Source of the DNA: an uncultured Nitrososphaerota archaeon
GTDB lineage: Archaea > Korarchaeota > Korarchaeia > Korarchaeales > Korarchaeaceae
Reading direction: 5' to 3'
Length of the DNA stretch: 64,000 bases
Assembly (NCBI GenBank): GCA_964594835.1
Contig: CAZQNA010000004.1
Coordinates: forward strand, 1-64,000
The position numbers were made by a program, and so were the translations under genes. Below are positions 18,591 to 21,905 of this stretch, piece by piece. Position 1 is the stretch's first letter, and each line of letters starts with the position of its first letter. The notes beneath the pieces are model-generated. The model made no database searches and was not told the origin of the DNA. It was given only the letters and a program-made list of their open reading frames with translations.

Positions 18591-19085
18591 TCAGACGGGG
18601 AAGGTGCCTCTCCAAGAATTAGCGAGTCTGAGCCTCTCCCGCAGGATGAACACGACGTGGGGGGCTACCCTGACGACGTCTCGGGCGGATATCACCCCGA
18701 CAACCTTTCCGGCCTTGTTGACCACTATGAGCCTCCTCACGTTCTTCTCCGACATGATCCGGGCGGCCTCTATCAGGTCCTGGCTCTCATTGATGAGTAT
18801 CGGGTTCTTGGTCATGATCTCCCTGACCTTGACGTCCTCCGGCTTTCTCCCGTCCTCCCTCGCGACGAACCTAGTGATTATGTCCCGCTCGGTCAGGATC
18901 CCGACGAGCTTGTCGCCGTCCATGACGAGGACGGAGCCTATGTCGTGCTCCTTCATCAGCCTGGCGGCCTCGGCCACGCTCTCCTCGGGCGTGACAGCGA
19001 TGACCTTCGGAGTCATGACCTCGCTTACCTTAAGTTCCTCCTCGGAAGCGTCTTCCTCGGGGGGCGGTACCAGCGCCCACCTCAA
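18591..19085 (-). CDS. CBS domain protein (2 CBS)
   Basis: IGSVLV..GILTERD; VRRLIVV..GVISARD. Confidence 0.9.
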   Translation of the reverse strand: MRWALVPPPEEDASEEELKVSEVMTPKVIAVTPEESVAEAARLMKEHDIGSVLVMDGDKLVGILTERDIITRFVAREDGRKPEDVKVREIMTKNPILINESQDLIEAARIMSEKNVRRLIVVNKAGKVVGVISARDVVRVAPHVVFILRERLRLANSWRGTFPV

Positions 19086-19101: not shown

Positions 19102-20991
19102 TCATCTGACCGGGGCCACTATCCTGACCCCGCCAGAGGGCAGTAGCCTCTGGAGATCCTCCACCTCGATCTCTGCTGGCACTCCCCTCTTCTTTGCGGC
19201 TTCCCTCAGGCTCTCGGTTAAAACTGTTGTGGCCCTCTCCTTGGGGAGATCCCCGGGAGCAATCTCGTATCCGATCACCATCCTCCCCCCCGCGCCCGGG
19301 GGCCTCGAGATCAGCCTGTAGTCATCCTTCCACTCCATCAGACCTATCTCGAGCCTCAGCTCACCCCTCAGGAGGCCCCTCCTCCCGACGATGTAGAACG
19401 ACCCCCTGGGCAGGAACATCCCAGGGGGGGCGTGCGTGGAGACCTGCTCCCCCCTGACGTAGAACACGTCGACCTGTGAGAGCCCCTCCCTCCAGGCTCT
19501 CGAGTACGAGGCCGCGTAGCAAGCCGCCTCCCTCATCGTGCCCTCGTCGGCCTCACGGCCGGCGGTCTTGACTATCACGACCGCCCCTCCCGGGAGGTCG
19601 ACGTGGAAGAATAGGTCGGAGGGCTCCATGTACCTCCTGACGAGCTCCCTGTTGGTGGAGGCGTCGAGGCCCGCCACCACCAGCATCCCCCCAGAAGAGG
19701 TGAACCACCTGAACCTCTCGTACCAGGCCCTCCTCCTCCGCCTCCTCACCCGGACCTCGTACTCCGGCTCGGGGCGGGCCAGCTTGGCCTCCAGCTCCCC
19801 GAGGATCTCGTCTATCCTGGCCGCCTTCTGCTCCAGCCTCTTCGCCCTCTCGTAGAGCCTGGAGGCGTTCTCGGCTGCAGTCAGCCTGAGGTCAACCTCG
19901 ACCTCTCCGGCGGAGAGGTTCAGCGTGGCGACGCCCCGACCCCTGTCGACCCTGACCCAGCCCGGCGCCTCCCCCCTGCGGGCTGCGGCCAGGGCCCCGT
20001 CCACCTCGGCCAGCCTGGTGAAGATCTCGTCCGCCGCCGCCCTCAGCAAGGCGGCCTCCTCCCTGTACCTCCGCCTCAGCTCCATCTGCCTAGCGAGGCC
20101 CTCAGAGGCCGACCGGTCCTCCTCCCTCGAGACCTCCTCAACTATCCTCTCCGTGAGGTACGCGTCCAGGGCCGCGTTCATCGACTTTCCGAACGCCTCC
20201 GCCCGGTACCTTCGCGACAGGGACTCGAGGGGGAACGCGGAGAAGTTCACGTAGACGTCCCCCTCCCGGTACATGGTGGGCTCGGCCGGCCCCGAGGTCC
20301 TCTTGAGCACCCGTGCCGCAGCCTCGGCTATGTCCCCCCAGAGCCCCTCCTGGTCGGCCAACCTGGACCTGAGGTCCGCCCCAGCCTGGAAGGCCACCTC
20401 CTCGGCATAGGGCGGACCGATCCCCAGCCTGAACGTGAGGAATCTCCACAGCTCCAGGTCGGGGCTCGACTCCATCTCCCCGAGCACGGCGCCGGCGTCC
20501 AGGCCCTCCGGCTCGAGCGATCCGCTCGGCGGGTACTTGTACCTCAGGCCCCTCCTAAGCTCTCGGGCCCTGACCCTGAGGGGGCGGGCCAGCTGCACTA
20601 TGACCCCGTCCTCGTCGGTGAGCACCAGGTTCCCTCTGCCGAAGAGCTCTACGTGGAGCCACCCCGAGTAATCGCCCTCGTACCTGAGGCTGGCGACCCT
20701 TTCCAGCCTGAGCTGCCTCACCTCCACGACCCTGGCGCCCCTCAGCCTCTTGCGGAGCCCCATGGCCAGGGGGGTGGGCGTCTTCGGCTTCTCCCACTCG
20801 TACCCGCTCAGGTACATGGCGCCGCCGAGCCAGGCTATCAGCTCGCTCCGCCTGGCAGATCCGCCCAGCCTGAGGGAGAACAGGGAGTCCGCCATCTGGT
20901 AGACCTTCTCTATCCTCAGCGGGAGGAGTTCCTCCAGCTCTCGCAGGACGAACCTCAGCTCTATCCCAGCCACGCTGAGCCTGGCCGGCAT
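19102..20991 (-). CDS. rqcH: ribosome quality control factor Rqc2/NEMF/RqcH
   Basis: ELFGRGNLVL, WYERFRWF, AGLDASTN, NFACT-R FHVD..G, SRAW, GSFYIVG. Confidence 0.92.
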   Translation of the reverse strand: MPARLSVAGIELRFVLRELEELLPLRIEKVYQMADSLFSLRLGGSARRSELIAWLGGAMYLSGYEWEKPKTPTPLAMGLRKRLRGARVVEVRQLRLERVASLRYEGDYSGWLHVELFGRGNLVLTDEDGVIVQLARPLRVRARELRRGLRYKYPPSGSLEPEGLDAGAVLGEMESSPDLELWRFLTFRLGIGPPYAEEVAFQAGADLRSRLADQEGLWGDIAEAAARVLKRTSGPAEPTMYREGDVYVNFSAFPLESLSRRYRAEAFGKSMNAALDAYLTERIVEEVSREEDRSASEGLARQMELRRRYREEAALLRAAADEIFTRLAEVDGALAAARRGEAPGWVRVDRGRGVATLNLSAGEVEVDLRLTAAENASRLYERAKRLEQKAARIDEILGELEAKLARPEPEYEVRVRRRRRRAWYERFRWFTSSGGMLVVAGLDASTNRELVRRYMEPSDLFFHVDLPGGAVVIVKTAGREADEGTMREAACYAASYSRAWREGLSQVDVFYVRGEQVSTHAPPGMFLPRGSFYIVGRRGLLRGELRLEIGLMEWKDDYRLISRPPGAGGRMVIGYEIAPGDLPKERATTVLTESLREAAKKRGVPAEIEVEDLQRLLPSGGVRIVAPVR

Positions 20992-21053
20992 CCCACCCCT
21001 GGGGGAGGTCCACGTCTTTAAAGCGGAGGGGCCCGGGGGTCGGCCCGATAGGC

Positions 21054-21905
21054 ATGACGCTCAAGGACTCCCTCTTCTGGCTCAAGCTCTCACTCTCATC
21101 TCTCGCCGGCCTGCTCGCCGGAGTTGCCGGCCTATCGGCCACAGAGGGACTCACGCTGTTCTTCTTCACGGACATCGCCGCCGGCACCGCCCTCTTGACC
21201 TGGAGGAGGGAGGCCGTCTCAGAGGTGGGCGTGTACAAGGCCTACAGGGAGTTCTTCATGACCTCGTTCCTGGCCTTCTTCCTCCTCTGGACGCTGTCCC
21301 TCAACGTGGCCGCGGGTGGGGTGGCGATATACCTGGCCTCCCCGGTCGAGGGGGTCCAGGAGCTCAGGCCCGTCGTCCCCAGAGACGGCTTCCCCTACAA
21401 CGCGCTGTGGATACTCAACTCGACTGACGAGACGTACACCGCCCTGGTGGGGTCCTGTGCCCCGATGGGGGAGGCCGCCAACCTGGAGAACCTGACGGCA
21501 TCGGCTGGGCCCAGCGGGATCACTCTCGTCGTGGAGGCCCCCGTGGAGGAGGGCTCGCCGACCGCACTGGGGTGGGCCAACCTCACCTACGAGAACGGGA
21601 CGGTCACCCTCCGGCTCCCGGGCGATGGGGGTATCGAACTCAGGGTGGGCGAGGAGAGGACTGCGGAGCTTGGAGGTCACCCGCTCAGGGTCAGGACCTC
21701 GCCCGCGGGGCCGGCCGCGGCTAGGGTGGAGGTCGAGGTCGGCCCGCTCCCCGCTCAGTCCTCCGACCTCTCCGGCGGCCCGCTCGGCGCCCTCGTCTCC
21801 CGCATATTCGTGGAGGGAGACAGGTACTGCGTCTTCGAGCCCGGCCCAGCTACCTTCAAGAGGACCCTCAGGGTGGACGGGGCGTACGTGCTGATCAGGG
21901 GGTGA
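21054..21905 (+). CDS. EMC6/RAB5IF-like 3-TM protein with C-terminal ectodomain
   Basis: N-terminal SLSSLAGLLAGVAGL...G and EFFMTSFLAFFLLWTL resemble the EMC6/Rab5ip family; C-terminal beta-rich region has four NxT sequons. Confidence 0.6.
   Translation: MTLKDSLFWLKLSLSSLAGLLAGVAGLSATEGLTLFFFTDIAAGTALLTWRREAVSEVGVYKAYREFFMTSFLAFFLLWTLSLNVAAGGVAIYLASPVEGVQELRPVVPRDGFPYNALWILNSTDETYTALVGSCAPMGEAANLENLTASAGPSGITLVVEAPVEEGSPTALGWANLTYENGTVTLRLPGDGGIELRVGEERTAELGGHPLRVRTSPAGPAAARVEVEVGPLPAQSSDLSGGPLGALVSRIFVEGDRYCVFEPGPATFKRTLRVDGAYVLIRG

Follow-up and report, generated by a model that had tools for sequence, protein, structure and literature searches.

A korarchaeal EMC6-like membrane protein with a fused all-beta ectodomain: a candidate partner of the archaeal Oxa1-superfamily insertase

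The locus and its protein

The stretch of DNA analysed here, called the window throughout, comprises positions 1 to 64,000 of contig CAZQNA010000004.1 (64,000 nt) from an uncultured archaeon of the Korarchaeota lineage. At 21054..21905 on the forward strand the list of open reading frames (ORFs) shows a single ORF with an ATG start, which encodes 283 amino acids (aa) plus stop. Its product consists of a three-helix membrane domain of the EMC6/OPTI type, very probably the EMC6-like partner of an archaeal insertase, and of a much larger C-terminal domain that we infer to face outward. An earlier note on this DNA, made from the letters alone, had described an EMC6/RAB5IF(OPTI)-like partner of a membrane insertase fused to a glycosylatable outer domain, and its observations proved correct in every checkable detail. 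For comparison we used a panel of 121 genomes, 43 of the window's GTDB phylum (source name Korarchaeota; simply “the phylum” below) and 78 outside it. The gene is subdivided as follows.

21054..21905, forward strand: whole gene, EMC6-like domain fused to an ectodomain (ORF list; the same single-ORF architecture occurs phylum-wide)
21054..21314, forward strand: EMC6/OPTI-type three-helix membrane domain, residues 1-87, helices 3-25, 29-50 and 68-86 (Pfam EMC6, PDB profile matches, exhaustive structure comparison with VIA, Foldseek)
21315..21476, forward strand: first part of the ectodomain, residues 88-141, with conserved G100, P106, N116 and G133 (alignments A1/A2, conservation count); residues 88-92 and 107-108 lie in the predicted YidC interface
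21477..21755, forward strand: variable middle of the ectodomain, residues 142-234, with three of the four sequons (lowest conservation; sole part with weak fold matches)
21756..21902, forward strand: C-terminal strands of the ectodomain, residues 235-283, with conserved F261, Y278 and L280 (conservation; co-fold contacts with YidC 117-126)
21417..21425, forward strand: sequon N122-S-T (sequence)
21489..21497, forward strand: sequon N146-L-T (sequence)
21579..21602, forward strand: sequons N176-L-T and N181-G-T (sequence)

A Kyte-Doolittle scan returned three hydrophobic stretches, whose peaks span residues 7-25, 31-49 and 67-91. In the AlphaFold model, built from 14 family members with a mean predicted local distance difference test (pLDDT) of 87.8, the helices comprise residues 3-25, 29-50 and 68-86, and about 20 beta strands lie between residues 91 and 281, so that the C-terminal domain of about 195 aa is all-beta in this model. 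Scan and model agree with the three hydrophobic helices that had been seen in the first ~85 aa, and sequence and model likewise agree with the beta-rich region of about 200 aa bearing four sequons (NST, NLT, NLT, NGT) and two cysteines. The cysteines (135 and 259) are both located in the ectodomain. They are not a family-wide pair, being present together in 6 of 13 full-length rows of alignment A1, five from the window's own genus and one from another.

Identity of the membrane domain

Several lines of evidence identify the N-terminal domain. Pfam EMC6 (PF07019) matches residues 7-81 over profile positions 2-79 of 81 with 29.6 bits, above the cut-off of 23.3, and a six-frame search of the whole 1.82-Mb genome found exactly one EMC6 locus, namely 21054..21905 (32.5 bits). 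When a profile of 12 korarchaeal N-domains (A4) was run against all PDB sequences, the “Obligate partner of TMCO1 insertase” (OPTI, 7tut_9) came out on top with E 8.7e-9; four EMC6 sequences came next (E 1.1e-6 to 4.7e-6), and the match after these had an E of only 1.4. The alignment from this search also confirms the likeness of helix 3 to RAB5IF, which had been proposed in the earlier note. Exhaustive structure comparison with VIA ranked human EMC6 first (6ww7_F; Z 13.2, root mean square deviation (rmsd) 2.0 over 89 aa), then OPTI (7tut_9; Z 11.8) and yeast EMC6 (7kra_F; Z 11.4), after which the values drop to 7.4. Foldseek matched the model to 6ww7_F with probability 1.00 and TMt 0.75. A Z near 13 is a level that helical bundles can reach by chance, and the weight of this result rests on the gap to the next row and on the agreement with the sequence search. 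No NCBIfam family matches the 283-aa protein. Computed in silico, the N-terminal domain is of the EMC6/OPTI type: the Pfam match above its cut-off, the profile matches of A4 and fold matches of Z 13.2-11.4 with a 4-unit gap behind them all bear out the proposed EMC6/RAB5IF(OPTI)-like identity.

Archaeal relatives of this domain have been described before. Lewis & Hegde 2021 (PMC8675477) searched nine archaeal proteomes and reported a single EMC6-like protein in every one of them; they also presented a model of Methanocaldococcus jannaschii YidC with MJ0606, and found that, among human proteins, C20orf24 (OPTI) is most closely related to the Asgard protein. A 2026 preprint (PMC13734099) repeats these findings on archaeal EMC6-like proteins.

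One could argue that the three helices are a generic anchor whose likeness to EMC6 arose by chance and which has no role at an insertase, given that small helical bundles reach Z values of up to about 13 without homology, that the Pfam EMC6 score is modest, and that the protein fails the archaeal model EMC6_arch. Such a scenario would leave unexplained why OPTI and EMC6, and nothing else, top both the sequence and the structure searches, and why the gene is placed divergently to rqcH just as bona fide EMC6_arch genes are. The gene is also single-copy and the genome's only candidate, in line with the one EMC6-like protein per archaeal proteome queried by Lewis & Hegde (PMC8675477), and the co-fold described below passes while its controls give 0.00. 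We regard a chance resemblance as very improbable, and the product as very probably an EMC6-like partner of an archaeal insertase.

Predicted complex with the archaeal YidC

The genome contains one DUF106/EMC3_TMCO1 gene (81 bits), the archaeal YidC, on another contig than the EMC6-like gene. At its locus (L001; G000:C1:52550-55999) the gene itself (G000:C1:54041-54553, minus strand) immediately follows secY and precedes the L34e gene. DUF106 was detected in 40 of the 43 phylum genomes, and because the frames are 167-197 aa long where complete (two are longer, with 241 and 363 aa), the YidC of the phylum carries no comparable added domain.

Alignments of 17 korarchaeal DUF106 proteins (A5) and of the full-length fusion protein (A2) were used as co-fold input. 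Three runs gave ipSAE values of 0.66, 0.67 and 0.67, versus 0.00 for the best of three controls, with a contact agreement of at least 97% and a partner pLDDT of at least 83. The mark applied is reached by 116 of 157 solved complexes and by 2 of 215 mismatched pairs, counts that are only rough here, own alignments having been used. The interface includes YidC residues 137-164 and engages the EMC6-like side through transmembrane helices TM1 and TM3. An interface with the genome's only Oxa1-family protein, as envisaged in the earlier note, is thus predicted (ipSAE 0.67 against a best control of 0.00). The pass of the membrane part shows likeness and not binding, because like complexes (EMC3-EMC6, TMCO1-OPTI) have already been solved.

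The predicted contact between ectodomain and YidC, in contrast, has no solved precedent. Ectodomain residues 107-108 and 268-282 contact YidC 13-16 (the N-terminal stub) and 117-126 (the TM2-TM3 loop) in the co-fold; specifically, residues 268-273, 276, 278, 280 and 282 touch YidC 117-126, with an expected error of 1.5 Å for YidC 120 against residue 278, and residues 88-92 are also part of the predicted interface. These contacts are limited to outward-facing YidC segments, which is consistent with an external C-domain. The best-kept columns of the family include W79 and N84 in TM3 as well as Y278, L280 and F261 in the ectodomain; Y278 and L280 lie within the predicted YidC contact and F261 near it. 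On the YidC side P120, L124 and P125 are invariant across the phylum.

Topology, glycosylation and fold of the ectodomain

The loop between TM2 and TM3 (residues 50-66) contains four K/R, which fits the topology of EMC6 with the N-terminus inside and the C-terminus outside. The four sequons in the window's 196-aa C-domain compare with 0.65 expected from 500 shuffles. Across 17 homologues the C-domains hold 92 sequons versus 25.0 expected from shuffling, about 3.7-fold, to be read as a trend and not as a statistic since the homologues are related; every C-domain among them has at least two sequons, and the N-domains have 0-1. The genome also contains an STT3/AglB gene. Loop charge, sequon enrichment, the STT3/AglB gene and the outward-facing contacts of the co-fold, all indirect and computational, point to the outward placement that had been assumed for this domain, and to judge by its sequence the ectodomain is probably N-glycosylated.

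Folded alone from 12 sequences, the ectodomain is modelled with a pLDDT of 93.4 and a predicted template modelling score (pTM) of 0.86, and it is without a confident match to any solved fold. The best VIA row is domain I of HAP2, with Z 6.3 across 87 aa. Most of the remaining top rows are other class II fusion proteins (Z 5-6), and all of these rows are confined to residues about 142-234. For the class II fusion proteins (HAP2, fusexin, flavivirus E) only domain I could be aligned, at Z 5.1-6.3, which is below the tool's meaningful level, and their ectodomain comprises three domains as compared with 196 aa here. The Foldseek comparison of the predicted ectodomain suggested in the earlier note did return a top row, the DUF1608 S-layer domain of Methanosarcina (MA0829; 3u2g; E 4.1e-4, probability 0.97), but with TM scores of 0.18-0.25 and an rmsd of 11-13, so that it yielded no convincing solved relative; VIA gave Z 3.6-4.1 over 90 aa for the same pair. 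The P1 domain of YidC scored no better (3bs6_A Z 3.3, 6al2_B Z 3.1, 3wvf_A Z 2.9; Foldseek probability 0.10 or less). Foldseek with the C-domain against BFVD gave no match at E 0.001 or less, a search of the ESM Atlas with residues 90-283 gave no usable match, and Pfam at E up to 10 assigned no family to the window's C-domain; run on 12 C-domains at the same threshold, it produced two weak matches of single members only (DuoxA 0.051, Pih1_fungal_CS 0.15).

The S-layer match brings in the main rival explanation, according to which the helices pair with YidC or merely anchor the protein, and the ectodomain has a surface job of its own (S-layer attachment or spacing, adhesion, ligand) that is unrelated to insertion. 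A top row from an S-layer protein would suit such a role, and so would the variable, sequon-rich middle of the domain, as is often found in surface-exposed proteins. The DUF1608 match is poor in three dimensions, however, and has no support from sequence (0 Pfam families for the C-domain). Furthermore, the best-conserved residues of the ectodomain are those predicted to contact YidC: the better-kept regions 88-141 and 235-283 (mean majority fraction 0.39) include this contact. Overall, we consider an independent surface job somewhat unlikely.

Distribution among archaea

The N-domain profile matched 41 of the 43 phylum genomes, in open frames of 270-409 aa except for one of 169 aa at a contig end. 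Each genome has one such locus, and two have a second, weak partial match with E above 0.001. The two genomes missed, G042 (with a C-domain fragment at a contig start) and G030 (also without a full-length rqcH match), look like assembly gaps. The C-domain profile matched 33 of the 43, one copy each (in G049 split over two contigs) and always in the EMC6-like ORF. Its ten misses are G030 and nine genomes of a single genus (g3), eight of which have the N-domain in long frames, of 286-339 aa or, in one fragmented draft, of 270 aa, the ninth being G042; two genomes of this genus aligned near full length with the single protein as query. ORFs from four further families of the phylum (292-321 aa) are alignable throughout.

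These data also decide whether the long ORF could be an artefact, that is, an apparent fusion of two genes created by misassembly or by a frameshift error. The genome is indeed a draft of 24 contigs. The comparative data refute such an error: an uninterrupted ORF of 283-321 aa was read out in 13 of 13 other phylum genomes, from five GTDB families, and of the 41 genomes with the N-domain 40 have it in a long frame (270-409 aa). The AlphaFold model, too, stays confident where the two domains join. The chance of an artefact is negligible.

Protein database searches gave a consistent picture. Eight proteins were found by a word-indexed search of 5.8 billion proteins, all of 283 aa and all with PF07019, one of them source-named “Candidatus Korarchaeota archaeon”. 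An exhaustive search of 1.84 billion representatives returned 11 proteins, including the query itself; eight others have 287-297 aa, and one has 194 aa. The remaining protein (P0016, 1554 aa) is an immunoglobulin-repeat protein that matched one 25-residue stretch 13 times and was treated as spurious. A locus search with the single protein found two close relatives only, in records titled “Thermoproteota archaeon”. All nine matches of the C-domain profile in a large protein database carry PF07019. In the genomes and databases searched, the C-domain was found only in fusion with EMC6-like helices, and that it never turned up apart from them speaks against an independent surface job.

Outside the phylum, the N-domain profile matched 10 of 78 genomes. 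Nine of these matches lie in frames of 96-188 aa; the tenth (G065) is weak and partial, in a 296-aa frame located elsewhere than the EMC6_arch gene of that genome. Pfam EMC6_arch matched 23 of the 121 genomes, none of them in the phylum, in frames of 85-143 aa apart from one weak match inside a 1104-aa frame. The taxonomic distribution of the fusion, which the earlier note had suggested as a check, shows the long form across the phylum and outgroup homologues in frames of 85-188 aa. Because the long form is phylum-wide and the outgroup homologues sit in short frames, we place the gain of the ectodomain at the root of the phylum or earlier; it has been retained since. That other archaea do without the domain would also fit a surface job unrelated to insertion.

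In family f8 (L063, L064, L065; G034, G091, G112) the frame upstream of the EMC6-like match is lysine-/acid-rich and of low complexity, the whole frames measuring 149-188 aa; this stretch may be an N-terminal, presumably cytoplasmic, extension.

Full-text literature searches found no description of an EMC6-like form that bears an ectodomain, and a term search in Makarova et al. 2015 (PMC5898192) found the words Rab5, EMC and DUF106 not present there. Archaeal EMC6-like partners as such are already published; the fused ectodomain is the new part.

A conserved divergent arrangement with rqcH

Upstream of the EMC6-like gene lie the following features.

20992..21053, no strand: divergent intergenic region of 62 bp with one A/T box, CTTTAAAG, at 21016-21023 (sequence)
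19102..20991, reverse strand: rqcH/NFACT gene, the divergent neighbour (Pfam NFACT_N E 9e-42, NFACT-R_1 E 1.9e-28)
18591-19085, reverse strand: two-CBS-domain protein, downstream of rqcH

In 40 of the 41 phylum genomes with an N-domain, NFACT_N is adjacent and divergent, the exception being a gene 37 bp from a contig end. A tblastn comparison of loci agreed in 22 of 22 cases; these loci represent 13 different numbered genomes plus two named records. The arrangement extends well beyond the phylum: among 30 outside genomes with an EMC6-type match to either profile, rqcH is adjacent and divergent in 17, which belong to nine further GTDB families. Seven of the 17 were recovered via the N-domain profile (families f8 and f18) and ten via EMC6_arch (10 of 23 genomes; families f6, f7, f12, f29, f30, f41 and f52), four of the latter being confirmed by Pfam on the ORFs with 32.9-64.3 bits. 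In the remaining EMC6_arch genomes the two genes are apart (eleven) or an NFACT match is missing (two). Examples of the divergent pair are found at 19102-21905 of the window and in loci L061-L065, L067, L075, L077, L081 and L082. The position shared with short EMC6_arch/EMC6 genes is good evidence that the long korarchaeal gene is their ortholog. In our literature searches no paper mentioning the divergent rqcH/EMC6-like gene pair was found.

The box CTTTAAAG is palindromic; it precedes the EMC6-like ATG by about 31-38 nt and the rqcH ATG by about 25-32 nt. Box and flanks, CGTCTTTAAAG, are common to the window and to all four genus relatives compared (4/4); other genera have a different A/T-rich box, in gaps that measure 58-75 bp apart from two of 31 and 223 bp. 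This pattern suggests one shared TATA element and near-leaderless transcripts. Of the earlier proposal of divergence from rqcH across one TATA box, the divergence and the single box sequence stand, while a TATA function is read from sequence only.

Several side observations concern this neighbourhood. Three loci of the outgroup family f18 (L061, L062, L067) also have a CBS-like match next to rqcH, and there the conserved block may be three genes long. Downstream of the EMC6-like gene lies an archease gene (Pfam E 2.9e-48), and about 600 bp downstream there are ORFs that, read by eye, resemble the start of a uL3-uL4-uL23 ribosomal protein cluster. Many phylum genomes have a second weak NFACT_N match (G000:C9:29802-30029 and equivalents) over profile positions ~161-240, with about 24-34 bits and in a ~520-aa frame; most of these fall below the cut-off of 31 bits, and they may represent a distant paralogue or a shared sub-domain.

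One genome of another archaeal phylum (G060) carries a 300-aa ORF divergent from rqcH (L089:114-1013; G060:C58:10033-10932). Its N-terminus matches EMC6_arch below threshold (20.7 bits versus 26.7), and its C-terminal extension is acidic and sequon-rich. This extension is unrelated to the korarchaeal C-domain profile (hhalign probability 0.4%), and no counterpart of the long form was found in the other four genomes of that phylum (five examined; the order is represented by one genome). Observed in this single genome, it may be an outer add-on acquired independently of the korarchaeal one. If so, outer add-ons may be lineage-specific accessories, which again would be compatible with a surface job of the korarchaeal domain.

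Interpretation

Taken as a whole, the data are best explained by an EMC6-like partner of an archaeal insertase that carries an ectodomain as an outer cap, a reading to which we assign a probability of roughly 0.6. In this explanation the protein would be the partner subunit of the Oxa1-superfamily insertase (DUF106/archaeal YidC), and its three transmembrane helices would pack on the last YidC helix, as EMC6 does on EMC3 and OPTI on TMCO1, with the N-terminus in the cytoplasm and the C-terminus outside. In Korarchaeota, the C-terminus would have grown into an all-beta domain of ~195 aa, probably N-glycosylated. Its conserved first and last strands are predicted to sit against two outward-facing segments of YidC, the N-terminal stub and the TM2-TM3 loop, and the remainder of the domain is a variable, sequon-rich middle part. 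The domain would then form an integral outer cap that holds the heterodimer together and may offer a surface beside the exit of translocated segments. The parts of this explanation differ in strength. In sharp distinction to the identity of the membrane domain, the proposal that the ectodomain works with the insertase as an integral cap docked on YidC is tentative, and we put it at slightly less than an even chance. The computed results cover the identity of the membrane domain, the single gene copy, its phylum-wide distribution and orthologous position, the excess of sequons and the predicted interface; outward topology, glycosylation, binding in the cell and any role in insertion are what we infer.

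A number of observations weigh against the cap and, in part, against the partner assignment. Pfam EMC6_arch (PF19094) has no match to the protein at E up to 1 and none in the 43 phylum genomes at E 0.001 or less. As regards the co-fold, the pass of its TM part may be a memory of the solved EMC3-EMC6 and TMCO1-OPTI complexes, and a comparison of seven korarchaeal with five outgroup sequences showed no phylum-specific insertion in the outer loop of YidC that would mark co-adaptation. No match of Z 8 or more was found for the ectodomain among 48,161 chains compared with VIA, and the lumenal EMC subunits (EMC1/4/7/10) are absent from the matches listed for the C-domain by VIA and Foldseek. Residues 142-234 are the least conserved of the ectodomain (mean majority fraction 0.30; one column at 0.7 or more), and the cysteine pair, as far as the alignment goes, is a genus-level trait only. 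Finally, partners of ~100 aa suffice in archaea outside the phylum, so that the basic mechanism works without the domain.

A more far-reaching scenario combines two ideas. Korarchaeota would have independently evolved an outer “lumenal” module, without a solved relative, on the ancestral two-subunit insertase, where it would receive or chaperone translocated segments and thus be a minimal natural counterpart of the EMC lumenal cap or of the bacterial P1 domain; and the ancient divergent pairing of rqcH with the EMC6-like gene would mirror a functional connection, in archaea, of co-translational membrane insertion with ribosome-associated quality control. We think this combination unlikely.

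With the phylum form one can ask whether Oxa1-type insertases have acquired outer domains more than once, and what such domains do. An outer domain is added mass outside the membrane and thus a natural handle for purification and cryo-EM. The protein also adds a confidently modelled domain without a confident fold match, and the conserved rqcH neighbourhood may help to trace a possible connection between ribosome rescue and membrane insertion.

Comparison with known systems

The archaeal pair of YidC and EMC6-like protein is thought to be ancestral to the insertase cores of the eukaryotic EMC, GET and GEL complexes. We know of no biochemistry on the archaeal pair.

By position, the putative cap may be likened to the lumenal module of the EMC or to the P1 domain of Gram-negative YidC. 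The analogy is positional only, because no convincing fold likeness to an EMC lumenal subunit or to P1 was found. P1, too, is large, rich in beta structure and located on the outer side of an Oxa1-superfamily insertase, and to our knowledge it is restricted to one lineage and absent from homologues elsewhere. P1 resides within the insertase chain itself, between TM1 and TM2 of YidC, whereas the korarchaeal ectodomain belongs to the partner; the fold likeness is at best slight (Z 2.9-3.3).

Other archaeal EMC6-like proteins (e.g. MJ0606 of M. jannaschii; EMC6_arch, PF19094) likewise have three TM helices, occur once per genome and are predicted to bind the last YidC helix (PMC8675477). In many lineages their genes share the rqcH-divergent position. 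Their frames measure about 85-188 aa and include no outer domain, in contrast to the korarchaeal form with its additional ectodomain of ~195 aa, which moreover matches the eukaryote-type Pfam model EMC6 and not EMC6_arch.

The eukaryotic proteins EMC6 (partner of EMC3) and OPTI/RAB5IF/C20orf24 (partner of TMCO1) resemble the korarchaeal membrane domain in their profile matches, in their superposable fold and in the predicted TM1/TM3 interface. In the eukaryotic complex the lumenal mass is contributed by separate subunits, EMC1, 4, 7 and 10. EMC6 and OPTI themselves end shortly after TM3, whereas the korarchaeal protein continues from this point into a covalently attached outer domain.

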